A DNA stretch of 64,000 bases, from assembly GCA_000004985.1 (NCBI GenBank), contig GG738845.1. One strand, 5' to 3'. The notes under the pieces are model-generated. The model searched no databases. It was not told the DNA's origin and worked only from the letters and a program-made list of their open reading frames with translations. Below, in pieces: positions 20,722-56,218 of this stretch. The position numbers and the translations under genes were made by a program. The stretch comes from Naegleria gruberi. Its lineage: Eukaryota. The first letter of the stretch is position 1. Every line of letters starts with the position of its first letter.

Positions 20722-20747
20722 GGCGCGAAATTTGTTTGCGCGCCAAA
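20722..20747. promoter_or_regulatory. Inverted pair of E2F-type sites (GGCGCGAAA = TTTCGCGCC on minus; GCGCGCCAAA = TTTGGCGC on minus), 9-35 bp upstream of the RFC5 ATG
   Basis: The sequence is gggcgcgaaatttgtttgcgcgccaaaa. It contains two of the very few GCGC tetramers in the 64 kb window, arranged as a near-palindrome. Confidence 0.45.
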
Positions 20748-21019
20748 ATAATTCTAGTATTCACAAACAGTTGTTTTCAACAAAAGTTTAGTATATCCAA
20801 TACTTTTGGTTTCCTGTTGAATATGTTTAAAATTTAATCGAACCCTGATAAGAAAAGGTGTTTTAAATTGTCACAACCTTGTGTTTCCGTTACATAATCA
20901 AAATCTTCCCGCCATTTCAAACCGTTACTCATTCCAATTGTCAATGTCCCTTCAAAACTCTAATCATTAATATTTTAACAATTAAAAAAAAACACACCAA
21001 CAACAACAAACAATAACAA

Positions 21020-22063
21020 ATGGTGAGCAAGAGCAAACAATCCAACAAGGAAATTGTCGTTGAGGATGAACACTTCATCCCAGTCGAACCATCCGAACCA
21101 ATCCTCCCTCTCAACGAACTCGGTTCAAGATTGGGCAAGGCAGACAATGAAAAGTGGACAGGCTGCAAAGTTGTAGCAGACAAGGAAACTGGTGAGAAGG
21201 TTCTACTCGTCAGAGGTATTAAAAACAAGGAGAAGGATCGTAGTAAGAGAATGGTCAAGAAGGGTGGTGAATTTGATCCTGAAAATATTGTCTCAGGCAC
21301 CAGAAGAAGAAAGAATATTAATTATAAGGAAAATACCGAAAGAAAGGAAAGCAGAAAGACTAGCAGCAAGAATACCCATGAAAATAGATCAAAGGCTGTT
21401 GCAAAGACTTCAAAGAAAAAGTCAACCTCCAAGAAGAGAAAGGCAAAGGAAGAAGAACATTCCGAAGAAGAAGAAGAACACGATAAGGAAAATATTGAAA
21501 ATCAACAAGAAGAAGATGAAGAAATTGTTCAAGCTCCAAAGAGAACTAGAAAGAATAGAAAGAATGTATCTGTCAAGAAGGAAGAACCTAAGGAAGAAGA
21601 GCCAAAGGAACCTGAATGGACACTTCCACTCTCTCCTGTCGTTTGTCAATTGATTCAAAAACTTGGTGGTGAATTGCCAACTGAAGCTAAGAAGCGTTGT
21701 TATAAGGGTATTAGACTCTCAGAACCAGTTAATTATTGGTGTGCTGTCAAGTGGCCTGAAGATACTCTTTATGTTATGGATCCTGCCAAGACTAATGGTG
21801 AAACTGTTGGTCTCTTTAAACATGAATTGTTTGAATTGACTGAAATTGAACAAATACAATATGTTCAAGACAATCCAAATGCTGTCATGCTTGCTGATGG
21901 TGAAGGTCTCCTTACTTGTTTACCAGATGAATCTAATGATCCTGATTTTAATGTTCATATCATTCTTGAAGCTACTGAAGGTGCTGATGAATGTGTTTTC
22001 CGTATGAAACTCTCTGAATACCTTGCTTCGTTGTCTGTTGATCCAAGAAAGGTGGAAAATTAA
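21020..22063 (+). CDS. Hypothetical Lys/Glu-rich (likely nuclear) protein, 347 aa, single exon
   Basis: It is a long ORF with an ATG start. It has a basic KKRK stretch and a conserved-looking C-terminal globular region (WTLPLSPVVCQLIQKLGG...). Confidence 0.55.
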   Translation: MVSKSKQSNKEIVVEDEHFIPVEPSEPILPLNELGSRLGKADNEKWTGCKVVADKETGEKVLLVRGIKNKEKDRSKRMVKKGGEFDPENIVSGTRRRKNINYKENTERKESRKTSSKNTHENRSKAVAKTSKKKSTSKKRKAKEEEHSEEEEEHDKENIENQQEEDEEIVQAPKRTRKNRKNVSVKKEEPKEEEPKEPEWTLPLSPVVCQLIQKLGGELPTEAKKRCYKGIRLSEPVNYWCAVKWPEDTLYVMDPAKTNGETVGLFKHELFELTEIEQIQYVQDNPNAVMLADGEGLLTCLPDESNDPDFNVHIILEATEGADECVFRMKLSEYLASLSVDPRKVEN

Positions 22064-22272
22064 TTCACCAATACTTGTACATTCTCTAAGCTGTTAATAC
22101 TAGATTATAATATATTACTGAAATCAATTTCATATGATTGCCCTTTAAGTTGTGGCCACAATGATTGATTTCATTTCTCTAAGTTATTTAAATAAATTTA
22201 CTAATAATTATTTCACATTTAATGTTTCAAAATTTGCTTGACAAAATATCTTTCACTGAAAGATGCTCTAGT

Positions 22273-23582
22273 TTATTTCTTCTTAGAAGATTCATAACTA
22301 AAAACGAAAACACCAACAAAACTCAAAAAGATTCCACACCATCCAAACAATGAAAAGGTAACACCAAAGAATGCAAAGCTTAAAACTAAAGTCACCAACT
22401 TGTAACAACTGTTTGCAATTGAAATGGAAGTGTTGGTAACTAATTTGAGGAGGAAAAAGTATGAAAGTCCAATAAGGAATCCAAATACTGAAGTAATTGC
22501 AATATAAATCCAATCAGTTGTACTCAATGAAGCCAAAGCAACACCAACTTGAACTCTATCACTAGAGAGAGCAAGAATAACGTAGAAAATTGGGAGTGAA
22601 AGTAAATTTCTAGCAAAATTCATACTAATTGGAGAAACACTTGGCATCCAATTATTTAAAATTCTCTTTTCTACTAATGGAATTAAAACAGTACATAAAG
22701 TATTCAAAACAACCCAATGATAACCATTCCATCTTAATGTATCTATAGATAAGTATCAACATGACATGGTATTCATTATTAGAAACAATCATAAATTAAT
22801 CAATGAATCAATAAAGAAAGATATCATTTTCCATATTAAAAAAATATTGAAATAATATATCGTAATACATCATAATACTACTACTTACAATCACTGAAAC
22901 TATAAAAAATACTTCCAACAAAAACAGCCAACAATGACAATTGAATTGTAAAATTCATCTTGTAATCAAAGAAAACTCTATCAATAATTGCAGTTAAAAG
23001 TGGCACTAAATTTCTAGTAACAGTAACCAAAGGAACACTTGCAATTTTCAATCCTTCAAAAGAAGTCCAAGTTAACAAGACAAAGAATAAACTAGTTGGT
23101 AATAAAAAGGTCAACTCTCTCAAAGTTGGAAAATTGAATGGCAAGACATTAAATTGTTTACAAATCAAAAAGGCCAAAACTCCGATAATTGTTTGGATAA
23201 TAATAATCATCAATGGAGCATCAAAAGATGATGATAAATGTTTGTTAACAAGTGTTAATGTAATACTACTCAAACATTGTAAACCAATCCAAATATGTGG
23301 TTTTGTAAAAATTGATAAAGTGTTAATAATTGTTAAAGTTTTGGAATTTTCTAAAAATTCAAAACAAGTCAAATTATCTTCATGTAATTTATCAATTCCA
23401 TTTAAAAAGGAATAATTGGATGCGAATTGATCAGATGGATGTTCACTATATTCTAATTCTTTTAATACTTGTTTTTTGACATCTGACCATGATGTTTGTG
23501 ATGAACATGAAATGTTTACCTTGTCTCCGAAAAGTGTTCTAACTTCGAGGGTTTTAAATTCTTCTTGACTTTCTGTATCCAT
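22273..23582 (-). CDS. Nucleotide-sugar/triose-phosphate transporter family (SLC35/TPT-DMT) membrane protein with an about 90-aa N-terminal extension, 2 exons: join(22273..22742,22889..23582)
   Basis: It has about 9-10 TM helices and the TPT-like pattern. A 146-nt intron (GTAAGT...CTATAG, phase 1: t+at=Y) joins the two listed minus ORFs into ...FYSFSD|Y|TLRWNGYHWVVLNTL.... The N-terminus KTLEVRTLFGDKVNISCSSQTSWSDVKKQVLKELEY looks like a beta-grasp/ubiquitin-like segment. Confidence 0.7.
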
Positions 23583-23783
23583 TTTTTTTTAATGTGTGAT
23601 GACACCTGACAGTCCATGTAGGGACCAACATCCAAAAGATAATAAATTTTTTATTGAATTGGGCATTTTGAATTTATTATTTTATGTAATTTTAATGAAA
23701 TATTTCAATTCTCCTTAAATATTTGCAAATATTTTCAATAAACTATTTAACTGTTTACAAAAATATTATTAAATATTAAATAT

Positions 23784-24011
23784 TCATCCTCTCAATTTAA
23801 ATAAAAAGTGAAGAGTTGAATCTTTTTGAATATTGTAATCCAGTAGCGTTTTATCATTCTCCATTTCTTTACCAGCAAATATTAAACGTTGTTCACTGAT
23901 GGGAACTCCATCTTTATTGAATATTTGATTCTTTACCGATTCAATTGTATCATTCGATTCGACATCGAGTGATAGAACTCTATTGTTTAGAGTTTTGACG
24001 GTTATTTGCAT
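23784..24011 (-). CDS. Divergent ubiquitin-like protein (75 aa) ending ...LRG (single C-terminal Gly)
   Basis: [75 protein letters not shown] is about 45% identical to ubiquitin along its full length, with equivalents of K48 and I44 present. It ends in RG rather than RGG. Confidence 0.7.
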
Positions 24012-24279
24012 TTTGTTTTTTTTTTATTGTTTATTGATCAGAATTCTAAAATTAATTGAAAATTAAATAATATATGGAAAATTGATGAGCGATGAACTCG
24101 GTTCTAGTTTGGAAAGCTCTCTTTACAATGAGAACTCTTGATTAATAATAAAAATCCAACTGGTTGTTTATTAAATAATAATTAATCTTTAGATCTCTGA
24201 ATTCAAATGCAAAAATTGAAAATTGGAAAAATCTTGATTTGTTGCAAAATTTTAATTTTTTATTAAAATTTATAAAAAA

Positions 24280-27200
24280 ATGTCACAAACACCCGGTGGA
24301 GTGGGCGTGTCGAATAATTCAAATCCTTCTACTACTCTTCTGGGTTCATCTTCTCAACAACAACCCACCGATATTAATAGTAGTTTGAATATTTTACAAG
24401 AAAAGATTATCTATATTGATGATGATCAGCCTACTTCTTCCGACAGCTCGGATACTCAACAACGAAAAAAACAAATTCAACAAGCAATAACGAATATATC
24501 AGAGTTTTTTATTTATTACTATCAACAAGAATGTAAATTTAATTTATTAGATTCATCAAGTGGTTCATCTAGCACTGCTACTGCTACTAATAATACAAAT
24601 AACTCTACATCCAACAATACAAGTAATAATAATTTGGAGATCTTTTATAAAAATGTTACAAATTTCTTAAATATATCTATTCAACAATTATTAAGAGGAT
24701 GTGGAGATGTGAGTGAATCCATTCGAACATTTTCTAATGAACATTTAAGAAAAGTGATCAAATCAGTAATTGATACACATTCCGATAGAGTATTAGTAAT
24801 TTTATTTAGATGTATGAAGCCTAAAGCAAATAACAAGTATAGTATAATAAGTGCAATTTCTAATTTTGCAAATATATCACATTATATTAAGCCACAAAAA
24901 TGTAGAACAATGGTTTCATTTATTTTACCACAATTAATACAATTTATATCTATGGAATTTGACTATTATTCAACTATATTAGAAAATATTATTATGAATG
25001 GTTCTCTAGATAAAATTTTTGATATTTTAGGACCATACATTGAAAGTAATGAAATTTATGATTTTTGTAAAGATTTGTACAAATTATTATCACACTCTGA
25101 AGTTGAAATTAGAAGAGCTTGTGCTAAATGTATTTCATCATGTTGTGCTTTTATTCCTTCCTGTCCTATTCATCAAATTGCTTTGGACATTTTCAATTTA
25201 TCAAATAATTGTTTTGATAGGAACCAAACAACAACAACAACAATACATGATAACATCACAAATAACCTTGATCCGACAACAACAACAACAACACCAAACA
25301 CCACTGCGAGTGAAGGAGTTAAAAAGATGAAAGCAAGTGAAAGTAATTCTAACATAGAATGTACAGATATTAAAACACTGCAAGGAATTTTAAACACCTT
25401 TCTAAATTTACTAGTAGTACTAGATGAATTGAAGACAAATAATATAGAATATCAAACCTATAGTAATATTATTTGTGATTTATTAATTGATTGTCTTACT
25501 ATTCAAGATCAGAGAATTTTATCACCTTCTATTGAATTATTAACTAATTTACTTTCAAAATTTAGTAATTATTGTAAAAATTGGAATAGAGGAAAGGTTA
25601 ATTCTTTACTTTCTAAAATAATATACTTGTTATCTGTTCAGAGTGTTCTTGTAACTGTTAAAAGTTATGTTTTAGAAACTCTACAACAATTTTTATACGT
25701 CTTTCCAGAATGGACATTAGATTCTTTCCAATCTAATGATTTTAATTTGAATTATTTGTTTAATATTTTAGATAATATCGAGGAAGATTATTTAATTCGT
25801 GGTAAATCTGCAATTTTACTTTCCACTATTATTGAAGTTTGTGTTAAATTGTCTCACAAAAATTTATATGAAAAAGTAATTCCAATATTTGACTATGAAA
25901 GTATTTTATCAATGCCACGTTTAATCGGAAAAGGATCAAATCCTATACTAGGTGGAAGTTCTGCTCACCATTTAATATTTTGTAAATTGAGTCAATATAT
26001 TATTGATAAGATCATGTCTATCATGATGAAGGAATCATTTAATCATTTATTAATTAGAATGTTAATTAATTCTTGTTCTAAGAGCTTACCTATTTGCTTA
26101 AGCTCATTGGGAGAATTATCTTTCCATATTCCAAAATATATTTTATCTATTATTCATGTTAATGACAGTTTTTGGGGAGTCAAGTTTGAAATTTTAAATC
26201 TTTTAAATAGATTTGATTATACTCTTATTGAATATTACGAGAGAAAGAATAATGAAACATCAATTTCATTATCAACACAACCACTTTTACAAATTATTGT
26301 TGATTTGATTTGGAAATATATTGGTGATGATAACGAAAAAGTTAGAAAGTTATCATGTATGAATTTAATTCAATTATTACCATATCCAAATGTAATGAAT
26401 AATATTCATGCTCAATTGAACACAAGTAATACTTTAACAAAAACATCATCACAAATGGTTTCTATATTCGAAAGATATTCATCTAATTATGATAATAGAT
26501 TATTGAAACAAATCATTTCATCAGATATTTTGAAATATAGAAATGTTATTAGGGATCATGAATTGACCAATGTGGTTCTTGTTATTACACGTTGTATTTC
26601 TCAATTGAGTCTTGTAAAGGATGACAAACATACTTTTATTGGTATTTTAAAGTTATTATCTTTAGTAGCAAAGAAATATTCCTATACTAATACTCATAAT
26701 TCTAATGTTAGTAACAGTAATAATAGTGTTTCCATGATTAAACCAGTTATTGCATACTACAGTATTGAAGTGTTAGAATTACTGTTAGACAAATTAAAAT
26801 ATTCATCTGAAATTAGTACAGATTTAAGCGTACACTCAATGATTATCAAGACAATGGGATTATATATTACTCAATTAAAACATTTAAATGAAGCCAAGGT
26901 CTTGTACATTACTGAGCATTTATTAGAATATGAACAATTTATGATTGATTTGATAACAAATGTTTTTGATGAACAGTACATTAAACAATTATCAACCATT
27001 CAATCAGAATACCAAAAACATATGCACAAATATGTTTATGACAAGCTGTATAATAACATTTATCAGTCAGCCAAGTCATCTATTAGTAATGCAATTATTG
27101 ATTCTACATATAGTAGAGATGCTATTTCTATTATGAGATATCAATTGTTAAAGACATTATACTATATTTTACTGAATGGATCACCATCATGCATTGAAAA

Positions 27201-30200
27201 ATACACAATTTCAATGATTCAATATTTGAATTTTAATGCTAGATATGAAAAGAAGTACTCCATTCTATGTATCCAAGAATTATTCGTCTCATTGTTTGGT
27301 AAAAAGGATAAATACTACAATCTTAATATACCAAGTTACGAAAACATGAAACCAGTGTTTATCAATGATGAATATGATGTTATTTCAAATAATGATGTGA
27401 AAAAGTCTAATGGCCTGTTCGACAAGATTTTTGTTGAAGGTAAAAAGTATTCTATCTATGCTAGAAGAGCAATGAATAGCGATTTGAATTCTAATAGAGT
27501 TAGAACTAGAAGTCTGCTAGTTCCTTATGGTGAATCTACTTCTCCTTCTAAAAATACAACTGGAACGACTGGTGGCGGTTCAAATACACCTTCTACCAAG
27601 AAGGCATTCAGTTATGATTCTCAATTTTTAAATACTGGTAAAACATATAGACAAATATTGGGAATGTTCAATCCTGTAGTGATTGGTTTAACAAAATATT
27701 TCAAACACACTCATGACCGATCATTACAAAATGTGGTTTTATTCATGTTAATTAGAATGATTTGCATTGGAATAGATTTTAGTCAATTGGATAAGGATTC
27801 AACATTCATCAAGTTTATTTTTAATCAATTAGAAAAGTTTGACGAACCTGACTTTGTTTTATATCAAATTATGGACTTTTTGTCTGTTTTATTGTTTATT
27901 GTCAAATACCAACATTTCCCTGAGAATCCATTTGATTCTATTGTAAAATTAGTTCAATCAACATTCAATAGCTCACAGTTTGAAAAGAACGGAAATTCAA
28001 TTTTAAAGTCAATTTCACCTGTAATGATAAGAGGTTTCTTATGTGAAATCAGAACTGAAAAAGTTGAAAAGAGTTATGGTAACTTGATGCTGAATGAATT
28101 TTTGAAAAATGTAACCTTACCAGAATGTCAATCTGTATTGACATTGCTATTAAGAAATGTTCATCATTCAACTTTAACATGTTCAAACACCAATAATACT
28201 ACTGGTAATGCCTCATCAAGTAGCAATAGCAACAATACATCATCAAAGGATGCAACATCACTTCCGTGGATTGAATTATCAAATTCTATTCTTAAAGAAT
28301 GGGTTGTTAAACATAATTTACAGGTGGATGTAGATTGGAATTTAATATCAAACATTTCTAACCATTTCCAAACAAATAACATTGCTACCACTTATTATAA
28401 TCACACTGTAAATTCAAATAGTGGAGGTTTAACATCAAACTCATCTGCTTCAAATGGAAATCAATCTATGAATTTGAAATCCAATCTTGTTTTCCAAAAT
28501 AGATGTAAAAAAGAAAATGTTCAATATGAGTTTAATAATTGTGAATTTATAATTGAACTTTCTAAAATATTTTATTTCATTGATGCATTGTACATTAATA
28601 TTAATGACCAAGCAAAGATTGTAACTCACTTGATAGATTCTTTTGATGAACATTTAGATCAAAATTCTCTTGAAAAACAAGTTCAAACACCTTCCTCAGT
28701 TCAACATAAGGAAAATATGAACGAAAAGTTGAGTGTTATTAATAGCTTGCTAAAGTCCTTGATATTTATGAAACTCTTGAATAGAATTGATAAGAAACAA
28801 GCTAACGTGCAAGAAAATTTAAAGAATCTTGAAAGGTTTTTGCAATCAATTTCAAATGCATTGAATTTATATTTGAATCATAGAGACACTTCCTCGATTA
28901 TCGTAATCAAGTATTTAACTTGTGAAATGTTGACTGTCACAATAGAATTACAAGAGAGATTGTATATCAAGTTGTTGACACACGAACATGTACGACAATC
29001 TGATCATTTGAATTCCATTTTCCATAATCAAATTTTGCACATTTTGAAATTATTTAATATTAACTACCTCAAACATTATGATTTTACAATTTATACTTTG
29101 TTGTTCTCACTTTTGCTTGCTCATTCAAAGGTAGAAAAACAATTTGGAGTTTCATTCTTGAATTATTTATATGGTTTTTATCACTCTAATATTTATAACT
29201 TTAATATTTTGAATAATACCCAATTATTATTAGGCATTAATGAAAGTATTGCATCCGATGAGAATAATTTAACATATCATGAATTTGTAATTCAACAAAA
29301 ATCAGTTTTCCTCAGTATGATCAACATAATTGTAAATTATCAAGATAATATCATTGAATTATTCAAACAATGCGAAATTAATAATCTATCCAATCGTATT
29401 TGGAAAGAAATATTCAATCACTTTGATGAGCCATTAATAGAAAAGTTTTTGGAAAAGTTCTGTAGAGATATTTGTTGTGAAAATGATCTAGTCGGATTAT
29501 TTGACGAATTGAATGATAAATTCAAATCCCAACTACATTTAAACGATTTGAGAATTCTATTTAAGTTTATTAAGAATAATATTAAAAAAGAACATTTAAT
29601 TTGGTTGCATCCTAAGATTGTCAACCAATTGGAAGAAAGATTAAAGATTGAAACTACATTTATGAAAAGAAAAGTTATATCTGATATGATTAAGTATATT
29701 AATTCAAATATTGAAAAGCCAAATGAAAATTCAAAATTAAACCAAGAATTCAAAAACTTGGATTTAATTTTAGAAAAGGTTAAAAATGAAATGTTTAAGA
29801 ATCAAAATGAAATTCCTCCATCAAAATTAGTTAATAACTTTTTCACCTATAACAATTTAGTTTCTAATCCATTAGTAATTTCAAACTTCTTAATTGAATA
29901 TATGGATAAAAATGAACTTAAATATGTTCCTAGTATAGTTAGCAATTTAAATATTCAATCAATTAACAACATTCTAGTACATTTCAAAGATAACGTTGAA
30001 TTTATAACATCATTATTAATTCATTTGAAATCTAAAGAACAAATTTTACCTTTTATTGAATTTACGTTCAATGAATTGAATAATATTCCATATAACTTTA
30101 CAAGTTATTTGAAATTATCTAATTTATTATCAAAGTTACTATCAAAATGTAGATCATCAAATGATTTAATTCAATTATATGATAAGAATATGGTTATTAA

Positions 30201-33200
30201 TTTTACAATTAATTTTATTGAATTATTTTATTTGGAGAGAATTCAAAAACATAATGTTGATATTACAGATGTTGATTATATTTTATCGTTAATTTTACAA
30301 ATTTTGTATTCGTTTGGTAATTCTATTGAATATTATTCTGAAAATTTATTATTAATTTTAAATAATCCAGAAATAGATTTAAATTTGAATACTAATAATA
30401 CTTCATCTAATACTACCAAAACTACTACAAGTACTGTGGAAGAAACTAAGAATACTACTCTATTATTAATGGAAGATGATTATGTTGATAGCTTTGCAAC
30501 AACAACAGAGGAACCAACTGAACAAGAACCACAACAAGAAGATCAATCACCTAACAAGGAGACTAACAATTCTATTTTAGAAATGAATGAAGATGAAAGA
30601 AGGGTACTAAAATTCATCAAATTATCATGTCAATTAATAATTGATGCCACAAGCGTTTCATCACAATCCATCAATTACAATAAGGATATTAATATTTTGA
30701 AATATTTAAAGTTGATTCTATTCAAAACTTTCCAATTATATCCAAATATGCAAGCTTCTAATGAGGATAGTGATATTTATGGAAGTGTTGGAAATACTAC
30801 ATCCTTGTACGGATTTTCTATTGGTAATAGAATACCATTTATTTCATATCATCATTTGAAGTTGATTAGATCTATTGGTTTGGAGCTTTCTAAATGTTTT
30901 ATTAATTTAGTATATGATCCATATTTACCAAACATGGAAACACAATATTTCCCTAGAATTGATATAGAACAAGTTCAAACGTTAATTTTCATGATACAAG
31001 AAATAGGTTGCAATGAAGAAATATTTAAGCAATTGTTCGAAATGAGTTTTGATTTGCTCAAGATGGAAATTACTCAACCATTTGATGAAATTCATGTTTT
31101 ATTTATCAAATTGTTGACATGTATGATATGTAGAATGAATCAACCTCCGTCCCTATCCAATAACTTTTCATCCAATATATTATCATCATTTGATAACTTT
31201 GGAAATTCACTTCTTGGAATCCAACATGGTGGTAATAATTTGAACTCCATTTTGAACTCTGTCGAAAAGTACTTGTTAAAATCTACTGGTTCAACAAATA
31301 GTAGTGGTACTAGTGGTTCATTCACTGGTGGTATTGGAACATCAAATAATAGAAACAGTTTCAATGGAAGCTTTGGTAACATGAGTAATTTAATTGATAA
31401 GAATAGTAATACTACTAGACAGAGTATTAGTGTTGAGGAAATTTATTCCAAAGCACTTTTTAACAGCTTCATGTTATTTATTCATGATAGCATCCAAAAA
31501 TTCAGTAAGAATAACTTGATGATTACAAAAGAATTGGTTAAATCACTCATTCTTATTATGGAAAACAACATTGTATTATTTGCTGTTAATAATGGTACTT
31601 ATTCAGTTCAATGGTTGCACGAATTATTTAAAAACATTTATAAGGAATGTAATTTATACGAAGATTGGATATTAGGACAATATGCTCTATATGGTTTGAG
31701 CAAAACTTATGCCATTCTACATTCAAATAATGCCAAAGATGTCAATGAAGATTTTATCATCAAAACAATGGAATCATCACTTGTTAACAATCATTTGAAA
31801 CAATCTGCATTACAATCAGTTTTATCATTTATTGAATGTGGAAATAGAAATATTGTATTGAAATTACTTCCTTATTTAGCAAGCAATATTCAAACATGGT
31901 TATTAGATAAGGAACAAACTGTTTATAATCAATTATTATTGATGAAAATGGTAACTCAAATGGTACAACAATATCCTGAAGCATCTGTTCACCAATTGAC
32001 CAAAAAGACTATGGAATCTTTATTCAATTTATCAGATGATATTGACGCTCCTTTAACTATTGTCGTCACCATCTTTAAATCTTTACAAAAATTATTAATT
32101 AATTATTCACTTTCTCAATTTGAAAGATCTTTAATTGAAGCCATGACAAGTATTAAACAATCTACAATGATCACCAGAAATGATAATACCAATGCAGTAA
32201 CTAATAGGAATGATGCTGGAATGATGAACAAAATTGTTACTCCGTTCAAGAAGATGACCATTGATACTTCAACATTTAGTAATTTCACACAAATGTTAGC
32301 TCAAAATAAGACCATGTTAATTAATAGAAAGTCTACTGCTGGTTCTATGCAATCGAGCAGTAATACTGCGACTGTTAATACATCCAGTTCAACTTTACCT
32401 TCTAATAAGACAAATAATAGTTCTAGAATTAGTACTGAGAAACCTTCAATTACAGCCACAAGTAATAATATCAGTATTACTGTTGGAAGTGGTATTCCTA
32501 ATTCTACTACCAACACTGCATCATCTTCTGTAGCACCAACAAGTAATAACAATACAGCAACCACCAAGATGAAACAATTCATGAGTTTCTTCACAACTAA
32601 GAAGCAAACGACTCCTCCAACGAGTTCTACGACAACTACCACTCCTGCCGTTAACCAACCATCATTAACTCCACCAACTAATCCTACTTCTGGCTCATTA
32701 ACATCATCTCCAAGTCTTTCATCACTTCCAATGAGTAGAAGTATGAGCATGACATCGATTGTATCAAGTATGGCAAGATCAAGTGAAAAATTACAAACTC
32801 TCTCACAGACAAGAAGAGTTTTATTACTTGGATTAATGTCAACTTCAATGTATACATCATCATGCTCAACACAACAACAATTAGATTCACAAAGAGAACG
32901 TGCTAAAGTTAATATTTTACATTTAATTGAACAATTCCACGATGGTGAAATTGATAGAGAAGGTGAAATTATTTTAAGATTTATTCCACAATTAATGGTA
33001 GATTTCTTTGACAATGAGCAAATATTACCATTATTATATAACGAATTTTTGAGCTCTAAAACCCATCCACTGCTGTTATCATTACTTTTATCACTTCACA
33101 TGCCACATTCTTTGAATGATAGAAAAGTGTTTGAAAATTGGATCACAATGAGTATGCAAACGCTTTGTTTGAAACAACCAACATGTGGAGCATTGTGGGC

Positions 33201-33534
33201 ATTAATGTGCTTGTTTATTAGTGTTTGTATTGGTGAATTTGACCATCACTATGCAACACTAGTTTACTTTGGATCAAATTATGGACTTGTACATGAATGG
33301 AATGATATCTCTTCACATGCTTTCCTTTTATATGGATTAATATTTTATAATTATTTATCAAAACATGAAATGGATGGTGCCATTAATGTTTTTAAGAATG
33401 TTGTTCTTCCTCAATTGATTCAAGATTCAAAAGATCAATTAATTTATGTTAAATTATTGAAATCTTTACTATTTTTGATTAATTCAAACAATGGAGCAAC
33501 TTTACAAACCAAGTCACTTGAGGATTTCTTTTAA
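24280..33534 (+). CDS. htt: Huntingtin orthologue (3084 aa, single uninterrupted exon)
   Basis: The size matches metazoan and Dictyostelium huntingtin. The C-terminal blocks FIPQLMVDFF / ENWITMSMQTL / ALWALMCLFISVC align with the human HTT C-terminus (ILPQFLDDFF / RDWVMLSLSNF / ATWSLSCFFVSAS). The repeat architecture is HEAT-like throughout, and there is no long polyQ. Confidence 0.85.
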   Translation: MSQTPGGVGVSNNSNPSTTLLGSSSQQQPTDINSSLNILQEKIIYIDDDQPTSSDSSDTQQRKKQIQQAITNISEFFIYYYQQECKFNLLDSSSGSSSTATATNNTNNSTSNNTSNNNLEIFYKNVTNFLNISIQQLLRGCGDVSESIRTFSNEHLRKVIKSVIDTHSDRVLVILFRCMKPKANNKYSIISAISNFANISHYIKPQKCRTMVSFILPQLIQFISMEFDYYSTILENIIMNGSLDKIFDILGPYIESNEIYDFCKDLYKLLSHSEVEIRRACAKCISSCCAFIPSCPIHQIALDIFNLSNNCFDRNQTTTTTIHDNITNNLDPTTTTTTPNTTASEGVKKMKASESNSNIECTDIKTLQGILNTFLNLLVVLDELKTNNIEYQTYSNIICDLLIDCLTIQDQRILSPSIELLTNLLSKFSNYCKNWNRGKVNSLLSKIIYLLSVQSVLVTVKSYVLETLQQFLYVFPEWTLDSFQSNDFNLNYLFNILDNIEEDYLIRGKSAILLSTIIEVCVKLSHKNLYEKVIPIFDYESILSMPRLIGKGSNPILGGSSAHHLIFCKLSQYIIDKIMSIMMKESFNHLLIRMLINSCSKSLPICLSSLGELSFHIPKYILSIIHVNDSFWGVKFEILNLLNRFDYTLIEYYERKNNETSISLSTQPLLQIIVDLIWKYIGDDNEKVRKLSCMNLIQLLPYPNVMNNIHAQLNTSNTLTKTSSQMVSIFERYSSNYDNRLLKQIISSDILKYRNVIRDHELTNVVLVITRCISQLSLVKDDKHTFIGILKLLSLVAKKYSYTNTHNSNVSNSNNSVSMIKPVIAYYSIEVLELLLDKLKYSSEISTDLSVHSMIIKTMGLYITQLKHLNEAKVLYITEHLLEYEQFMIDLITNVFDEQYIKQLSTIQSEYQKHMHKYVYDKLYNNIYQSAKSSISNAIIDSTYSRDAISIMRYQLLKTLYYILLNGSPSCIEKYTISMIQYLNFNARYEKKYSILCIQELFVSLFGKKDKYYNLNIPSYENMKPVFINDEYDVISNNDVKKSNGLFDKIFVEGKKYSIYARRAMNSDLNSNRVRTRSLLVPYGESTSPSKNTTGTTGGGSNTPSTKKAFSYDSQFLNTGKTYRQILGMFNPVVIGLTKYFKHTHDRSLQNVVLFMLIRMICIGIDFSQLDKDSTFIKFIFNQLEKFDEPDFVLYQIMDFLSVLLFIVKYQHFPENPFDSIVKLVQSTFNSSQFEKNGNSILKSISPVMIRGFLCEIRTEKVEKSYGNLMLNEFLKNVTLPECQSVLTLLLRNVHHSTLTCSNTNNTTGNASSSSNSNNTSSKDATSLPWIELSNSILKEWVVKHNLQVDVDWNLISNISNHFQTNNIATTYYNHTVNSNSGGLTSNSSASNGNQSMNLKSNLVFQNRCKKENVQYEFNNCEFIIELSKIFYFIDALYININDQAKIVTHLIDSFDEHLDQNSLEKQVQTPSSVQHKENMNEKLSVINSLLKSLIFMKLLNRIDKKQANVQENLKNLERFLQSISNALNLYLNHRDTSSIIVIKYLTCEMLTVTIELQERLYIKLLTHEHVRQSDHLNSIFHNQILHILKLFNINYLKHYDFTIYTLLFSLLLAHSKVEKQFGVSFLNYLYGFYHSNIYNFNILNNTQLLLGINESIASDENNLTYHEFVIQQKSVFLSMINIIVNYQDNIIELFKQCEINNLSNRIWKEIFNHFDEPLIEKFLEKFCRDICCENDLVGLFDELNDKFKSQLHLNDLRILFKFIKNNIKKEHLIWLHPKIVNQLEERLKIETTFMKRKVISDMIKYINSNIEKPNENSKLNQEFKNLDLILEKVKNEMFKNQNEIPPSKLVNNFFTYNNLVSNPLVISNFLIEYMDKNELKYVPSIVSNLNIQSINNILVHFKDNVEFITSLLIHLKSKEQILPFIEFTFNELNNIPYNFTSYLKLSNLLSKLLSKCRSSNDLIQLYDKNMVINFTINFIELFYLERIQKHNVDITDVDYILSLILQILYSFGNSIEYYSENLLLILNNPEIDLNLNTNNTSSNTTKTTTSTVEETKNTTLLLMEDDYVDSFATTTEEPTEQEPQQEDQSPNKETNNSILEMNEDERRVLKFIKLSCQLIIDATSVSSQSINYNKDINILKYLKLILFKTFQLYPNMQASNEDSDIYGSVGNTTSLYGFSIGNRIPFISYHHLKLIRSIGLELSKCFINLVYDPYLPNMETQYFPRIDIEQVQTLIFMIQEIGCNEEIFKQLFEMSFDLLKMEITQPFDEIHVLFIKLLTCMICRMNQPPSLSNNFSSNILSSFDNFGNSLLGIQHGGNNLNSILNSVEKYLLKSTGSTNSSGTSGSFTGGIGTSNNRNSFNGSFGNMSNLIDKNSNTTRQSISVEEIYSKALFNSFMLFIHDSIQKFSKNNLMITKELVKSLILIMENNIVLFAVNNGTYSVQWLHELFKNIYKECNLYEDWILGQYALYGLSKTYAILHSNNAKDVNEDFIIKTMESSLVNNHLKQSALQSVLSFIECGNRNIVLKLLPYLASNIQTWLLDKEQTVYNQLLLMKMVTQMVQQYPEASVHQLTKKTMESLFNLSDDIDAPLTIVVTIFKSLQKLLINYSLSQFERSLIEAMTSIKQSTMITRNDNTNAVTNRNDAGMMNKIVTPFKKMTIDTSTFSNFTQMLAQNKTMLINRKSTAGSMQSSSNTATVNTSSSTLPSNKTNNSSRISTEKPSITATSNNISITVGSGIPNSTTNTASSSVAPTSNNNTATTKMKQFMSFFTTKKQTTPPTSSTTTTTPAVNQPSLTPPTNPTSGSLTSSPSLSSLPMSRSMSMTSIVSSMARSSEKLQTLSQTRRVLLLGLMSTSMYTSSCSTQQQLDSQRERAKVNILHLIEQFHDGEIDREGEIILRFIPQLMVDFFDNEQILPLLYNEFLSSKTHPLLLSLLLSLHMPHSLNDRKVFENWITMSMQTLCLKQPTCGALWALMCLFISVCIGEFDHHYATLVYFGSNYGLVHEWNDISSHAFLLYGLIFYNYLSKHEMDGAINVFKNVVLPQLIQDSKDQLIYVKLLKSLLFLINSNNGATLQTKSLEDFF

Positions 33535-33577: not shown

Positions 33578-33625
33578 TTTCCAAATAACAAACACAAACA
33601 ACACTCAATTCATAGAAGAAAATTA
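33578..33625. repeat. Short dispersed repeat (ttttccaaataacaaacac...actcaattcatagaagaaaat); second copy at 34492..34533
   Basis: A visible match of about 45 bp between the two loci inside the htt-downstream gene desert. Confidence 0.4.
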
Positions 33626-35775: not shown

Positions 35776-36044
35776 TGTAAAGGAAATTCCTTACAAACTC
35801 TCCAATACTATTTACTATTGGTGGGATCTAATAAAATTCTTTTTTTTAAATAATTTGGATTCTTTAAAAGAAAATTCAATTTTGCAAAGTTAATTATTAT
35901 TAATTAATTTATTATATTATACTATACACTTGTAAATAAGGTGAATAAAAACTCAATAATTCAAAACATTGACAAATAAACATGTGAAACCTTTCTACAA
36001 ACTATATTCATTGAAATTTTCAATTTATTTCTAATATTTACAAC

Positions 36045-36656: not shown

Positions 36657-36785
36657 TTTCTTTTCTGTTTGTTATCAATGGAAGTTTATTGAAAATGGTC
36701 AATTTATCAATTATAATTATTTAAACAATTTCCTTTTAGAGTTTTTGAACAAATTGGAAATTGTCTATTAAAGGAATTGATGATT

Positions 36786-37022
36786 TTATTTAATGCTCCT
36801 CTTTTTCAAGTATTTGTGAGCGTGATTAACAATTTGAGTTCTCGATCTTGTCTTGACATATAACTTGCTAATGAGTTTGTAATTTTCACCCACTTGAGAT
36901 AATCCCAATAGAAATTGTTTATGCTCTTCTGCATTCCATGGACCTAAATTTGAATCTTCTTCTTTAGTTGTGTATGTTGTTTTCTTAATTCTATAATCTT
37001 GCTTGGCAATAAGGTTTGACAT
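36786..37022 (-). CDS. Myb/SANT-domain protein of the SHAQKYF class (single Myb repeat); possible additional 5' exon 37150..37557
   Basis: KEEDSNLGPWNAEEHKQFLLGLSQVGENYKLISKLYVKTRSRTQIVNHAHKYLKK fits W..EEH..FL.GL...G...W..IS...V.TRT..Q..SHAQKY. The frame is open upstream to 37145. A candidate 106-nt intron (GTAAAT...AAAAAG, phase 0) would join it to the His/Gln-rich ORF 37126..37557. Confidence 0.5.
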   Translation of the reverse strand: MSNLIAKQDYRIKKTTYTTKEEDSNLGPWNAEEHKQFLLGLSQVGENYKLISKLYVKTRSRTQIVNHAHKYLKKRSIK

Positions 37023-38139
37023 TGTCGCTTTTTCTTTCTGTTGCTTTTTACTACTATTTGATTGTTTGTTGGATTTTACAAAGAGTGATGGAGCTGTTTG
37101 GGATGTGGAATTGTGCGATTTGTTTTTAGAAATCGATTGATTGATTTACCACATTGACTTGTTGTTGGTATTTGAAATTATTTACATTAAGATGGAAAGG
37201 TGCTGAGGTGTGGTGTACATGATGATGTGTTTGTTGAGAAGATGCTCTATTGAGATATTGAAGAAGAAGTGGACAATTTTTGATGATAGGTTGTGGAAGT
37301 ACGAGTATATGTGTATCATTGTTCATGTTATTCAACACTGATTGGATGGAGGGTAGTTTTTCAATAGTACATGAATTGGACATGCTGCTAATATTGGTTT
37401 GATTGAGGCGATTCGATGGATGTACCACATGCAAGCAACATGAATCATGTAAACAAGGATCTTGTTGAGGATGAAAAGGATTCTGAACTGAGGATGTATA
37501 TTGAACAGTATGTAGAAATGGAACCCTAGCAGAATCAGCTCCCTCACTATTTTTCATTGCTATTAATCAGGTCAAATATTGTTGTTTTTTCTCTAATCAT
37601 TCAAGATCATTCAAAACACCAACCCAAGTCTCTGTAAATCCTCATTGGTTGGCCGCTTAATTGTTAACAAATAATAAGCTAATGATTGGATTGTGAACCC
37701 GGTACCAACACTAAATTGTCCAGATAAGGTGTTTGGTGGACAAATGTAAAAGTTTGATCCTACAAACATTTAATTTCAAGTAAATACATTTTTCCTAATA
37801 AGCAATTACTGAAAATTAAGGAGGCAGAGAATCGTTTTTATGGCGTTTTTAAAATTGTAGTCGTAAATGATAACAAGCGCTGATCTTTAAAGTTTGAGTC
37901 TTACTAAAATCCAAAGCACATTTTGAGGTCAACCAAGGTCATCATTCCAATTTCCTAATTTGTCCTCTTGAACAATACAAAATGAAAACGATTATTTATT
38001 TAATGCTGTCGTCTTCACTTATTCAACGTTGTAACATTACCAATCGATTATCATCGATTTATTATGATGATTTTTCATATCTCTCGGAGTAAGTTTGTAA
38101 CTAATCACACATTCATGCTTTTTTGATTTTTTAAATTTG

Positions 38140-41100: not shown

Positions 41101-43203
41101 GTTAGAGTTGGTAAAACAACAAGTGTTGGAGGTAGAAATGATCCAAAACCAATTGACTCTGAAAAGAGATTATTGAGTGAAGAGCGAGTACAAAAATACA
41201 TGGTTAGAGATTACTTTACAATCATTGGATTGATGAGTAGTACAATCAAAGGAAAAGAATTATTGGAAGAAGAGAAAATATTTGATGTTCTCAAGGATTT
41301 AACAACTAGAAGAGATGATATTTCACAATTGATTATCAAACATTTAGATTATACAAGACCATTCTCTGATAGAGCAAGAGAAATATTAAAAGAAGCAATG
41401 ATGAATGGTTCAAATATTATCAGATATATTAGTACATTATTTATTAGACATTTAATTAGACAATCTCAAACCTATCCAAATAATTTCCATGCATGGGGTG
41501 TCCCTCTATTGACAAGCAAATTATATGATGATTGGGAAAAGGTTAAATTTTCTGCCATTTCAATTTTGAGTGAAGTTTGTTGTATGAACATGTCTTCAAA
41601 TTCGAGTAGTGCTGGTGATTCATCCTCAACATCAGATTTTGAATACGATGATTCAGCAACATCCATGCTCTCATCACCAAGAGTTTCAAGTGGAAGTAAT
41701 GAAAATTTACTTGCATTCGTATCACAGAACATTTCACGTGACGTGATGGAGAGCGTCATGAGAGAGGGACGTGATGGAATGAATTTACTCTTGAAAATGA
41801 CAAGTTGTAGAGAAGGTATTGATTATCTTTCACATGATAGTATTAGATTATTACAAGAATTAGTTGAAGATTGGTTTGAACGTGAGTCTTATCAATACTT
41901 ACAACAAGTTGAATATGGTTTAAATAGATTTTATAATATGAATCAATCTGCTCCATCCAATACTAGCTATTCTCCAAGTTCAACAACTGGTCACACCACA
42001 ATTGGAGGATCGCAATTAGTTGTCGGATCTTTATCACCATCTGGATTTAGAGAAACTGGAATGGCATCACCAACATTTAGGTCATCCAATCAAGCACAAT
42101 TCCAAAGCTTGAGTGGGTCATATGACTATGCTAAACATGGTGTAATTTTACAAAGTAATTTATATGGTGAATTATGTCATACACTAGAAGGATGTACAAT
42201 TTTAACAAATGACAAACATAGAACATTACATTGTTTGTGTATGAATTTATTGAATGTTTATCAATCTGTTTTAACATATCACAATAATATTGCTAATAGA
42301 TTATCAAATAGTAACGACAGCAATATTGAACCACAAATTGAACAAATTGTTGAATTGTGGTCATTAGCATTCTGCTGTAGTACAAATACAGGATATGAAT
42401 ATTGTAACAGATATATTCAACAAGTTATTATTGGATATGAAAAGAATCAAAATGAATCATTCCAAACTGCAGGTGATGAACAATTTACTGTTGTTCAATA
42501 TTTTGTTTACATTGCTTTACATAGTAAGGACATTTCATTAAGAGGTACAACATTATACTTGTTGGGTATTTTATCTAAATGTAGTTTAGCTAGAAAAGAT
42601 TTATTCGAAATTGGATTTGAATGTTCATATCGTTATGCTATTTCAATTCCAAGAGATAGAAAGAGTTTCTTTACCATTATTACTGATAATTCATCTTCTA
42701 ATGAATCAACAGGTAAAAATAACACTTCTTCAACAAGTAATCATCACCATCATCGTAAGGATGATTTTGATGAAGATGATTACTTATTAACATCAATTTT
42801 GAAAGAGTCACCAAAGAATGCAGATTTGATCAAGGATCTTGTATCAAATGTAACAAAAATTGCAAATCCAGTTCATGAGCAACAATCATCAACAAATTTG
42901 CAAAATCTCAAGACAAATATTGCACGAGTTTTGACAAATAATGAGAAATCTAAATTAATTTATTACTTTTTAGGAAATCATTTCACCCACTGCAAATACA
43001 AATGGAAGATTATCAAGTTTGTAATTAATGACCTTTTGGGTGGTAATAGTAGCATGCTTTGTTCATCTATTGCAACATCAAACGATTCTGCATTCCCTTC
43101 ATTTGATCCAAATGTTGAAGATGAACTCTATGTTATGAATACTCATTTATTGTGGTTAGATACTGAAACAGATTTGAAAATTAACAAATTACAACAACAA
43201 TAA
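38140..43203 (+). CDS. Rictor orthologue (TORC2 subunit; Pianissimo-like), about 1687 aa, single exon
   Basis: The C-terminal conserved block NLYGELCHTLEGCTIL...ISLRGTTLYLLGILSKCSLARKDLFEIGFE aligns with human RICTOR HLYGQLVHHKTGCHLL...LSIRGTCVYVLGLIAKTKQGCDILKCHNW. The N-terminal Rictor-like ARM/HEAT region (LWTKYNCHLLIFKMMLND...) is also present. The first ATG is at 38140, since the tool's start at 38137 is TTG. Confidence 0.75.
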   Translation: MRHFKRKMRPHQPPTHLQIPSQHTHHHQPQQQQYTTSSLNVQHPSSTSSSSSGHHMDRIVSPSSPRVNTNKPTFSTSSSASNLQQAFSSSNNNNNNNNINISFENVQEEIITVPLSQELIQVYQKQLFECIQKLKQTHTDGKDKAKSLEQIIYLACTLKSDFTMALFGEYNKSTNNQQQQNDKTTSSSSASSTMNGANNNSSTTTGQWTYSPQLDLFIKCMRYLLLHRSSYIRSLTVRCMRYIIQNDPCNFPFELLWTKYNCHLLIFKMMLNDTDREKIQVLELIRTLCNNFVKRKQSKQSYFAPPQHEIQIPFLFMKGIVHFLSYIDGTLLQMEQQQPQLQQQQLNSRSTTATTTATAGQGANNGNTSTAGNNSNTNTATTNNLSSSANDQKKQYFLESYKSVCIEILRDSLIHDESLCSTIIKCGGFKYLVELLLNNKFSTYHNSILSSILFICDRYKTRKFMKKGLLQLLYLISPFTNYSQLYQPLLDAINNAKVTNPNLVQQLTNDLNQLVLELERSKNIILFLMRSWTGLFIVNQDNINILGTLSNLLKSPNRTQLKHLILDLYIEILKQSAPSKYHYLIPPVFSECERKSKSSTSTNASGTTGSGTTTSVPNGAGGTTTSGAGGGTAIGSSSSALNTSTSAILSTSAASSIVHGGFSNDVTFYADHSGDEDRVVNICFVFLSMTILTLIDSGLIDSLLYLSKQSMINNKKKQTKNLDPKDKLNINDDDDEDKSERAFISFRASQLLQSVLLFSDMLLNKRTCLNMQDRFDTEIANFLLSITKSNLYSYKTLSMLSAFYQQSFQSSNVTGGSIHVDQAMIQAPANLSVLSDSTPASSDSIGDRFSKFSTTNIPTFYIRTQIDSDMDDQSFNQLIKESNVLVTKDPKRWNWEKIYCLIFGPLRVAHRLKEVTTKSQKLLKRILSYFKPYKRAFSDLKYQESNFGYTKLCNELLYNLLHMDESGIEIIRECKIIKQFYEVLEIEVRVGKTTSVGGRNDPKPIDSEKRLLSEERVQKYMVRDYFTIIGLMSSTIKGKELLEEEKIFDVLKDLTTRRDDISQLIIKHLDYTRPFSDRAREILKEAMMNGSNIIRYISTLFIRHLIRQSQTYPNNFHAWGVPLLTSKLYDDWEKVKFSAISILSEVCCMNMSSNSSSAGDSSSTSDFEYDDSATSMLSSPRVSSGSNENLLAFVSQNISRDVMESVMREGRDGMNLLLKMTSCREGIDYLSHDSIRLLQELVEDWFERESYQYLQQVEYGLNRFYNMNQSAPSNTSYSPSSTTGHTTIGGSQLVVGSLSPSGFRETGMASPTFRSSNQAQFQSLSGSYDYAKHGVILQSNLYGELCHTLEGCTILTNDKHRTLHCLCMNLLNVYQSVLTYHNNIANRLSNSNDSNIEPQIEQIVELWSLAFCCSTNTGYEYCNRYIQQVIIGYEKNQNESFQTAGDEQFTVVQYFVYIALHSKDISLRGTTLYLLGILSKCSLARKDLFEIGFECSYRYAISIPRDRKSFFTIITDNSSSNESTGKNNTSSTSNHHHHRKDDFDEDDYLLTSILKESPKNADLIKDLVSNVTKIANPVHEQQSSTNLQNLKTNIARVLTNNEKSKLIYYFLGNHFTHCKYKWKIIKFVINDLLGGNSSMLCSSIATSNDSAFPSFDPNVEDELYVMNTHLLWLDTETDLKINKLQQQ

Positions 43204-43247
43204 ATGTTAATGAATGAATTTATTTACATGTTGTTGTTATTTAACTA

Positions 43248-43874
43248 CTACTCGCTATTGAGATATTCTAACGTATTGCTCATTTCTTGTAAAATAGACA
43301 TCATATGAAAATCAATTTCCGAAAGATTCACATTAAATACATGAATATCAGATGGTAAACGTGTATAGAATGCAACATCCTATATTTGAGTAGTTACTCA
43401 TCGATTTAAATTTCAAAAAACAAACTACTTACATATCCAATTTCTAAACTATAGAGTGAAAATATTGTTAAGGACCCTTTTATATGCGTCGAGTAATAAG
43501 CACTTGTTTTGTCATTATTAAGATTCCTTGAAAATTGCAAAACTGATGATTTTAAATGTTGGGTATAGTGTATAAGAGTTTCATTATCTACAGATCCTGT
43601 CGTTAGTGGTGATGTTTCGGAATGATATCTTTAATATAATTAATATTGTTGTTCATTAACCTCCTCCAACTCAACTATTAAACACATACATTATTTGTTC
43701 TTTTGAATTTACAATAAATAATTCAATTTTTGCGTTATTTAAAAACAATTCAATAATTTCCTTTTCCAATCGATGTATTTCCTTCTTGGCAGCACTATTT
43801 AATTTTACTACTTGAGGTCCACGTCCTCCGAATAATCCACAAGGAAAACAACCCATCCAATTACTTTTCCTCAA
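43248..43874 (-). CDS. Small hypothetical protein with N-terminal MGC(F)PCG lipidation-type motif, 3 exons: join(43248..43379,43433..43628,43690..43874)
   Basis: The donors are GTATGT and GTAAGT, the acceptors are TTAAAG and ATATAG, the phases are 2 and 0, and the introns are 61 and 53 nt. The three exons give one continuous about 165-170 aa frame ending ...NTLEYLNSE*. The gene is convergent with Rictor, with 3' ends 45 bp apart. Confidence 0.55.
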
Positions 43875-44106
43875 TAAATTACGAAGTAATAGAAATATTA
43901 AACCAGTGAGTGGGACTGTTTGGTCAATTTTTTTTGTAGTTGTGTGTTGTTGGGATAGTCGTTAGAAGTTTTTTTCCTGATGTGTTATGAACTTTGAGAT
44001 TTAAGGCTAGTTTCCTTAATTTTAATTTCAATTAAAAAATTACATAATAATTAGTAGAAGCAGAGTGTTGTTTTATCCATTGAATTCGAGTTTTGGAAGG
44101 AAAACG

Positions 44107-44114
44107 TTTCGCGC
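44107..44114 (+). promoter_or_regulatory. E2F-type site TTTCGCGC, about 110 bp upstream of the RFC3 ATG
   Basis: An exact match to TTTSSCGC in the sequence acgtttcgcgccaatttt, within an otherwise about 80% AT promoter. Confidence 0.45.
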
Positions 44115-44221
44115 CAATTTTAAATTTTAACTTCAAAAAAAAATAACGAATTTGCTTCTGGTTAGGAACTTGAAGCGTAATCTCGAATTATCATCATCAA
44201 TAAGAAGAAGAAGAAAGAAAA

Positions 44222-45292
44222 ATGGTTCTCTGGTTAGATAAACATCGTCCAATGTCATTGGAAAAGATGCAAATCCACAAAGAAGTCTCTGAACAATTAA
44301 TGAATATAACCAAGAGTGGAGATTTTCCTCATCTTTTAATTCATGGACCATCAGGAGCAGGTAAAAAGACTAGAATACAAGCACTCCTTCGTGAAATATA
44401 TAACAACAAGATTGACAAAGTTAAATTAGAAAATAAGGATGTTTCTGTAGGATCGGATGGATCAAAGACTATCACAGTGACTGCACTTTCTAGTGGATAT
44501 CATTTAGAAATTACACCAAGTGATAGTGGATATTATGATAAATATGTTGTTGCTAATATGATCAAGGAAGTAGCAGAGACTGATTCTGTTGATTTTCTCT
44601 CTACTGGTAGTAGTGCTTCATCACATTTAAAAGTTATTGTTTTACATGAAGTTGATAGTTTAACAAGAGAAGCTCAACAAGCCTTGAGAAGAATTATGGA
44701 AAAGTATTCGAAATCATGTCGTTTAATTTTATGTGCCAATTCAACTTCAAAGATTATTCCACCAATTAGAAGTAGATGTATGGCTGTTAGAATACCAGCT
44801 CCTTCTGATGAAGAAATTTCAACAGTTTTACAATTTGTTGCCAAGAAGGAAAATATCAAACTCGTTCCAGAAATTACACAACAAATTTGTGAAAAATGTG
44901 ATGGTAATATGAGAAGAGCTCTATTAATGCTAGAAAGTGCCAAAGTAGAACAATATCCATTCACAAAAGATCAACAAGTTAAATTACCTGGTTGGGAGAA
45001 ATTTGTTGAGGAAATTGCTAAATCTATTATTGCTGATCAAACACCACAAACTCTTTTGAAAATTAGAGATGATTTCTTCCTTTTATTAACAAATTGTATA
45101 GCTCCAGATATTATTTTCAAGACTTTATTATTGAAATTATTGGATTTATTAGATGGTGAACAAGCACATCAAGTTATTGAATTGGCTGCTAAATTTGAAC
45201 ATAGAATGAAATGTGGTTCAAAACCTATTTTCCATCTTGAAGCATTTGTTGCCTCTGTAATGAGTCTTTGTCAATCCATGTTTAGTTTTTAA
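44222..45292 (+). CDS. rfc3: Replication factor C subunit 3 (RFC3/38 kDa; yeast Rfc5), single exon, 356 aa
   Basis: It can be aligned with human RFC3 across nearly its full length (MSLWVDKYRP..GDFPHLLVYGPSGAGKKTRI.., SRCLAVRVPAPS, YHLEAFVA). Confidence 0.9.
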   Translation: MVLWLDKHRPMSLEKMQIHKEVSEQLMNITKSGDFPHLLIHGPSGAGKKTRIQALLREIYNNKIDKVKLENKDVSVGSDGSKTITVTALSSGYHLEITPSDSGYYDKYVVANMIKEVAETDSVDFLSTGSSASSHLKVIVLHEVDSLTREAQQALRRIMEKYSKSCRLILCANSTSKIIPPIRSRCMAVRIPAPSDEEISTVLQFVAKKENIKLVPEITQQICEKCDGNMRRALLMLESAKVEQYPFTKDQQVKLPGWEKFVEEIAKSIIADQTPQTLLKIRDDFFLLLTNCIAPDIIFKTLLLKLLDLLDGEQAHQVIELAAKFEHRMKCGSKPIFHLEAFVASVMSLCQSMFSF

Positions 45293-45345
45293 TTTATTTC
45301 AATAAATCATTAATATTTATTCAAATTTCATAACGAGCAAGAAAC

Positions 45346-45353
45346 GCGCCAAA
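45346..45353 (-). promoter_or_regulatory. E2F-type site (plus GCGCCAAA = minus TTTGGCGC), 42-49 bp upstream of the RecQ ATG and 54 bp after the RFC3 stop
   Basis: It reads aaacgcgccaaaatcc and is an exact TTTSSCGC match on the minus strand. Confidence 0.45.

Positions 45354-56187: not shown

Positions 56188-56218
<31 letters not shown>

Follow-up and report, generated by a model that had tools for sequence, protein, structure and literature searches.

We found that octamers matching TTTSSCGC, a sequence in use in the literature as the E2F consensus, lie directly upstream of three DNA-replication or repair genes, RFC5, RFC3 and a RecQ5-like helicase gene (RecQ), in a 64-kb stretch of DNA that we refer to as the window and that, judging by the proteins it encodes, is from Naegleria gruberi (Heterolobosea, Discoba). 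These octamers are probably sites of N. gruberi E2F-family proteins, which would couple the three genes to proliferation. Replication-gene promoters with E2F sites are textbook knowledge in animals and plants. The present case would add a further supergroup to those in which this regulatory element is known; the arrangement is an expected one and apparently undescribed in this branch of eukaryotes, and a search of the literature on Naegleria or Heterolobosea with E2F found no description of E2F sites in these promoters.

Counting both strands, the window contains five exact matches to TTTSSCGC, and all five fall within about 200 bp upstream of a start codon (distances are from the ATG, not from the transcription start; Table 1). 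A first-pass annotation of the window had reported four of them, and we confirmed both their positions and their distances to the ATG. That list was incomplete, as an exact octamer at 62027-62034 (+) had been overlooked, and the accompanying claim that all sites mark replication or repair genes does not survive its discovery: one of the five exact octamers precedes a DnaJ chaperone gene, and either marks a target other than a replication gene or arose by chance. The two RFC5 octamers had been described as an inverted pair; both matches are on the minus strand, 17 bp apart, and form a direct pair, and only the distal box, not the proximal one, is roughly palindromic. Three of the five exact sites have the 8-mer CGCGCCAA in common, with the extended form CGCGCCAA(A/T). 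Furthermore, a relaxed site that was absent from the earlier list faces the gene divergent to RFC5, which encodes a protein with a CHZ histone-chaperone motif, so that the 306-bp gap between these two genes holds three E2F-like boxes.

The octamer is strongly and specifically enriched in the window. Over the whole window, five occurrences were observed against 0.66 expected, and none of 100 dinucleotide-preserving shuffles reached this number. All five exact sites fall in the 17.6 kb (27.5%) of the window lying outside open reading frames (ORFs) of at least 120 amino acids (aa), where 0.27 would be expected (0/2000 dinucleotide shuffles; Poisson p about 1e-5). Decoy words of the same composition (CGCSSTTT, SSCGCTTT, TTTSSCCG, TTTSSGCC and others) occurred zero times or once, and AAASSCGC twice; the decoy TTTCGCSS occurred three times because this word overlaps the real sites. 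One-mismatch variants of TTTSSCGC were at background (40 observed vs 33.5), which would be the behaviour expected of a site with an invariant core; as a means of finding weaker sites, at the DNA-repair gene FancD2 or elsewhere, this one-mismatch scan was uninformative. The strict site was found at three of the four replication or repair genes in the window and at one of the 22 other genes (Fisher p = 0.006, post hoc). We also considered the fungal MCB and the CAMTA-type CGCG box as alternatives and rejected both: the MCB core ACGCGT is absent from the window, and the CAMTA-type VCGCGB fits only two of the five exact sites.

The identities of the genes behind the boxes, as called in the first-pass annotation, hold by Pfam and by homologues. 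Our RFC5 model has 100% identity to N. gruberi protein P0126, carries the Pfam domain Rep_fac_C and has animal RFC5 proteins as its nearest named homologues. The RFC3 product exactly matches N. gruberi XP_002683342, which is encoded on a 1.56-Mb scaffold. The RecQ product matches human RECQL5 best among solved structures (E 7e-99), and its nearest named homologues come from plants (RecQ-like 3). As had been claimed, 102 bp separate the RFC3 stop (45292) from the RecQ ATG (45395), and the RecQ box sits within this spacer. The RecQ start codon lies within a short upstream ORF of 15 codons in a different frame (45376-45423; ATG at 45376).

The same annotation had placed the window in an amoebozoan-like context. 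This was wrong: because the RFC3 protein is exactly that of N. gruberi and its nearest named relatives are from Willaertia and Acrasis, we rejected an amoebozoan origin. Across the window, the closest named relatives of the encoded proteins are from N. lovaniensis, N. fowleri, Willaertia magna and Acrasis kona.

To place the octamers in an evolutionary setting, we examined orthologous loci from N. lovaniensis, two Naegleria-like assemblies, W. magna and A. kona, with all other annotated genes in those loci as controls. Multiple alignments of the promoters (A1, A2) were too diverged, with only the boxes and an A-run before the ATG recurring; we therefore scored position-free presence or absence against the neighbouring genes. 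In the Naegleria species and Willaertia, strict sites were present at 5/9 target promoters compared to 4/45 neighbouring genes (p = 0.004), and relaxed sites at 7/9 target promoters compared to 9/44 controls (p = 0.002). Gene neighbourhoods differ in every relative, and RecQ adjoins RFC3 in none of them; with synteny around the target genes lost, the boxes have therefore been kept gene by gene. At the level of individual boxes, a homologue of the proximal RFC5 box, CGCGCCC(T/A)AAAAAATG, immediately precedes the RFC5 start codon in two further Naegleria promoters, and the CTTCCCGCCA core of the relaxed site at 20906 also occurs in RFC3 promoters of other Naegleria species.

In the flanking Willaertia DNA, three genes have unselected strict sites upstream of them. 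One encodes a RECQ4-like helicase (L009, 10752 onward; best solved match human RECQL4, E 2e-54), with TTTCCCGCCAAA at 10713-10726, 39 bp upstream of the ATG. In locus L005, the perfect palindrome TTTTGGCGCCAAAA (8711-8725) lies upstream of a coiled-coil protein gene without a family, and GCGCGGGAAA (10705-10712) lies upstream of a kinase-like ORF, whose match to haspin is borderline (E 0.008) and was not relied on. The annotated Willaertia RFC5 begins at an internal MWIEKYRP; further upstream in the same locus (L005 5820-6001), an A-rich stretch follows another ATG at 5820. This suggests that the annotation misses the first exon, in which case the distance from the Willaertia box to the true start would be about 45 bp. 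The divergent partner of RFC5 in N. lovaniensis is a zuotin-type DnaJ-Myb gene (L004 3815-5788 (-) / 6001 (+)), and the two genes have a TTTCGCGCCAAA box in common; the partner of RFC5 in N. gruberi is the CHZ-domain gene. In the Naegleria-like metagenome contig L011, RFC3 is closely preceded by a tRNA-like sequence (gtagcctcgctagctcagtcggtagagcg...; about 700-760).

Table 1. E2F-like boxes and genes of the window, and boxes in orthologous promoters (negative positions are relative to the ATG).
Feature	Genome (locus)	Position	Strand	Description
Proximal RFC5 box	N. gruberi (window)	20723..20730	-	TTTCGCGC; exact match; 10-17 bp upstream of ATG 20713
Distal RFC5 box	N. gruberi (window)	20735..20747	.	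TTTGCGCGCCAAA; strict match TTTGGCGC at 20740-20747 (-), 27-34 bp upstream of RFC5 ATG
Relaxed E2F-like site	N. gruberi (window)	20906..20913	+	TTCCCGCC; one mismatch (CTTCCCGC); 107-114 bp upstream of CHZ-domain gene ATG (21020)
RFC3 box	N. gruberi (window)	44107..44117	+	TTTCGCGCCAA; octamer 44107-44114 (+), 108-115 bp upstream of ATG 44222
RecQ box	N. gruberi (window)	45344..45353	-	+ strand ACGCGCCAAA, - strand TTTGGCGCGT; octamer 45346-45353 (-), 42-49 bp upstream of RecQ ATG
Fifth exact octamer	N. gruberi (window)	62027..62034	+	TTTGGCGC; about 171-178 bp upstream of DnaJ (Hsp40) gene
RFC5 gene	N. gruberi (window)	19585..20713	-	exon 1 20713-20561, intron 20560-20488, exon 2 20487-19585; 351 aa
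CHZ-domain gene, divergent RFC5 neighbour	N. gruberi (window)	21020..22063	+	Pfam CHZ, E 5.4e-06
RFC3 gene (NAEGRDRAFT_29162)	N. gruberi (window)	44222..45292	+	356 aa, no intron; Pfam RFC_C, homologues
RecQ5-like helicase gene	N. gruberi (window)	45395..48046	+	exons 45395-46239, 46284-46779, 46864-47040, 47084-48046; 826 aa; splice model
FancD2 gene	N. gruberi (window)	54575..59557	-	Pfam FancD2; DNA-repair gene without E2F-type box
DnaJ/Hsp40 gene, downstream of fifth octamer	N. gruberi (window)	61139..61856	-	Pfam DnaJ_C, E 2.8e-38; ATG and J-domain start read from sequence
RFC5 promoter	N. lovaniensis (L004)	-40		TTTCGCGCCAAAA
RFC5 promoter	Naegleria-like (L012)	last 50 bp		one-mismatch boxes only, two (TCTCGCGCC; GCGCGCCCAAAA)
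RFC5 promoter	Willaertia (L005)	-231		TTTTTCCCGC; position from annotated ATG; about 45 bp from likelier upstream ATG
RFC3 promoter	Naegleria-like (L001)	-207		CTTCCCGCCAAA
RFC3 promoter	Naegleria-like (L011)	-43		CTTCCCGCCAAA
RFC3 promoter	Willaertia (L003)	-98		TTTCCCGCC
RecQ promoter	Naegleria-like (L013)	-42		TTGGCGCCAAAA
RecQ promoter	Willaertia (L009)	-43		TTTTGGCGC

The presence of E2F, DP and RB proteins across eukaryotes, including Excavata, has already been published (PMC4862756), and Medina et al. 2016 list the sequences NgruE2F, NgruDP, NgruDEL (E2F7/8-like) and NgruRB (PMC4862756, supplement). A Pfam scan assigned E2F_TDP and the dimerisation domain CC-MB to NgruE2F and E2F_TDP and the dimerisation domain DP to NgruDP, with the E2F_TDP winged-helix domain at E 1.3e-28 and 1.8e-18. 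NgruE2F contains the recognition motif RRIYD and the C-terminal tail EGVSDLF, ending ...SGEGVSDLFL, and NgruDEL has two E2F-like domains with RRIYD and RRLND motifs. We take the C-terminal tail of NgruE2F to resemble the RB-binding tail of animal E2Fs. The search for E2F and DP homologues that had been suggested with the original observation thus has a positive answer, as N. gruberi encodes both, plus DEL and RB; the E2F assignment can therefore not be refuted on the grounds that the factors are missing.

It had also been claimed that the window is almost devoid of GCGC, with about six occurrences. We counted 11, compared to 8.6 expected from dinucleotide shuffles (26/100 of which reach 11) or 8.4 from a Markov model, and base composition alone would predict 31. 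CpG observed/expected is 0.41 in the window, with TG and CA in excess (1.3), and GCGC is rare relative to base composition because CpG is depleted to this degree. The scarcity is ordinary CpG depletion and we discarded it as a special feature. CpG loss with an excess of TG and CA is what cytosine methylation typically leaves behind. Of the 11 GCGC words, six fall within E2F-like boxes and nine lie outside ORFs, as do five of the six CGCG words. The genome has a GC content of 30%. The promoters do not form CpG islands, and the CpGs of the boxes occur as isolated clusters within spacers rich in AT.

Other GC-rich words were seen in the window. Further non-ORF GCGC sites at 3753-3761 and 37877-37884 (atCGCGCTGATtatc; aaGCGCTGATcttt) have GCGCTGAT in common and lie in promoter-like gaps, one upstream of a minus-strand gene ending at 3519 and one in the divergent gap before RICTOR; GCGCTGAT may be a second promoter word. 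In addition, GCGCCATTTT at 12612-12621, 75 bp upstream of the ATG of a DUF202 gene (12537, -), resembles the TTCCCGCCATTTC site at 20906 and is not an E2F consensus match.

The Naegleria boxes can be compared with several known systems. The animal DHFR promoter carries an overlapping inverted E2F site, TTTCGCGCCAAA. Animal G1/S E2F sites and the Naegleria boxes have the same octamer (the N. lovaniensis RFC5 box is exactly TTTCGCGCCAAA and the N. gruberi RFC3 box is TTTCGCGCCAA), the same promoter-proximal placement and replication or repair genes as targets, whereas Naegleria is a heterolobosean, its boxes lie outside CpG islands, and they are known here from sequence. In plants, E2F sites of the TTTCCCGCC type are found in PCNA, RNR, MCM and CDC6 promoters. 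The W. magna orthologues have exactly TTTCCCGCC or TTTCCCGCCAAA and the target gene classes are the same, although the lineage is another one and the N. gruberi sites are CGCGC/GGCGC variants. In Dictyostelium, which has E2F and DP, rfc1-5 are among the S-phase genes repressed by RblA, along with other replication genes and genes of DNA repair (PMC3386910). This regulon is similar to the Naegleria case in belonging to an amoeboid protist and in having rfc genes among its targets; however, Dictyostelium is an amoebozoan studied through expression in an rblA mutant, whereas the Naegleria case belongs to another supergroup and is built from cis-sequence and conservation. Fungal MBF/SBF boxes (MCB ACGCGT, SCB) perform the same task, G1/S transcription of replication genes, through a factor that is unrelated to E2F, KilA-N derived and found in fungi only (PMC4862756); unlike these boxes, those of the N. 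gruberi window do not contain ACGCGT.

Several observations weigh against E2F control of these genes. FancD2 is an E2F target in animals, and its promoter gap in the window (58963-59818 scanned) contained neither a strict nor a relaxed site. The fifth exact octamer stands before a chaperone gene, and in the relatives about 9% of unrelated neighbouring promoters also have a strict site. Among the orthologues, one Naegleria-like RFC5 promoter (L012) has one-mismatch boxes only, the RecQ promoter of N. lovaniensis (L008) has no box and only TTCCCTCCAAAA, and A. kona RFC5, RFC3, RecQ and POLD1 (the last found in a flank) gave 0/4 strict sites, with weak forms only (GCGGCAA and ATTCCCGC). Positioned at -10 to -34, the RFC5 boxes may be part of the 5' untranslated region. 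Finally, the genes are few and their association with the octamer was seen by eye before it was tested. This last point, that a pattern among few genes was spotted ahead of testing, also speaks for chance, that is, for CpG-containing GC clusters that happen to resemble E2F sites near replication genes. Given that none of 2000 shuffles reached five non-ORF sites, that the decoys were empty and that orthologous promoters in at least four other genomes have the box as well, we regard chance as a very remote prospect.

The boxes might instead belong to an unrelated GC/CpG-box factor or to a general Naegleria core-promoter element, with the resemblance to E2F sites coincidental. The exact site before the DnaJ gene and the strict sites at unrelated promoters in relatives would fit this explanation, as would the non-ORF GCGC sites with different flanks (GCGCTGAT at 3753 and 37877). 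However, a site was found at only one of the window's roughly 22 non-replication genes, and the octamer is therefore not a general promoter element; the lack of MCB and the poor fit to VCGCGB argue against an unrelated factor, and the orthologues in Willaertia and other Naegleria have CCCGCC versions without CGCG that are united with the N. gruberi sites by the E2F consensus only. We consider a non-E2F factor improbable. A different question is which E2F-family member reads the boxes. An atypical E2F of the DEL/E2F7-8 type, with two DNA-binding domains and no DP partner, could be the main reader and act as a repressor that shuts the genes off. N. gruberi does encode a DEL-type protein with two E2F-like domains, and several orthologous sites have the extended (T)TTCCCGCCAAA form, which is the form preferred by E2F7/8. 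In contrast, the N. gruberi sites are of the TTTCGCGC and TTTGGCGC types, which classical E2F-DP binds equally well. We find it unlikely that DEL is the main reader, and because the DEL and E2F-DP classes use common sites in animals and plants, its involvement would be compatible with E2F control as proposed here.

Taken together, the E2F interpretation first put forward for this window stands on the exact consensus, its specific enrichment, the promoter-proximal placement, the recurrence in orthologues and the presence of the factors; the taxon and the GCGC claim attached to it do not stand. In the E2F interpretation, the octamers would most likely be read by an E2F-DP heterodimer restrained by the RB homologue, possibly with a DEL-type repressor opposing E2F-DP at the boxes. 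In this way, the genes for two clamp-loader subunits and for the RecQ5-like helicase would be transcribed in step with S-phase entry or with the proliferative state. The CHZ-domain gene across the RFC5 promoter is possibly co-regulated with RFC5 via their common promoter and may be under the same control. We infer E2F-family binding, periodic or proliferation-dependent expression, the direction of regulation and the co-regulation of the CHZ-domain gene.

The remainder of the window contains genes of diverse function. Pfam matches among the larger ORFs included MACPF, P-type ATPase, DUF202, FAD monooxygenase, EamA transporter, Erg28, RICTOR, protein kinase, FancD2, RPC4 and DnaJ, and several ORFs had no family. 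An uninterrupted 3084-aa ORF at 24280-33534 (+) encodes a huntingtin-like protein (Pfam Htt_N-HEAT_1, E 1.4e-35). The FancD2 gene is very AT-rich, with a GC content of 0.18 over 2 kb (56000-58000), and has its promoter in common with the RNA polymerase III RPC4 gene, where there is no E2F-like site. A tRNA scan of the window found none.

E2F, DP and RB have so far been assigned to the last common ancestor from protein phylogeny, and we found no earlier DNA-target-level evidence for an E2F regulon in Discoba in the literature searched. That Naegleria and Willaertia have the same octamer before the same clamp-loader genes suggests that the G1/S wiring, and not the proteins alone, is ancient. On the basis of these promoter sequences, it seems reasonably likely that Discoba have kept the octamer, its targets and its promoter-proximal placement as parts of an RB-E2F G1/S regulon inherited from the last eukaryotic common ancestor. 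Such an ancestral regulon is expected rather than surprising, and our result is confirmatory. A Tet-like dioxygenase exists in Naegleria, and in animals the binding of E2F is sensitive to methylation. One could speculate, with little expectation of being right, that the CpGs of the E2F boxes have been retained by selection and that methylation and oxidation of their cytosines gate the occupancy of the boxes by E2F; if true, this gating would constitute an epigenetic switch linked to the shut-off of replication genes when amoebae differentiate. In Naegleria, for which there are few genetic tools and which has a pathogenic sister species in N. fowleri, a short motif, three promoters and a set of named factors provide a cheap and testable handle on cell-cycle transcription.

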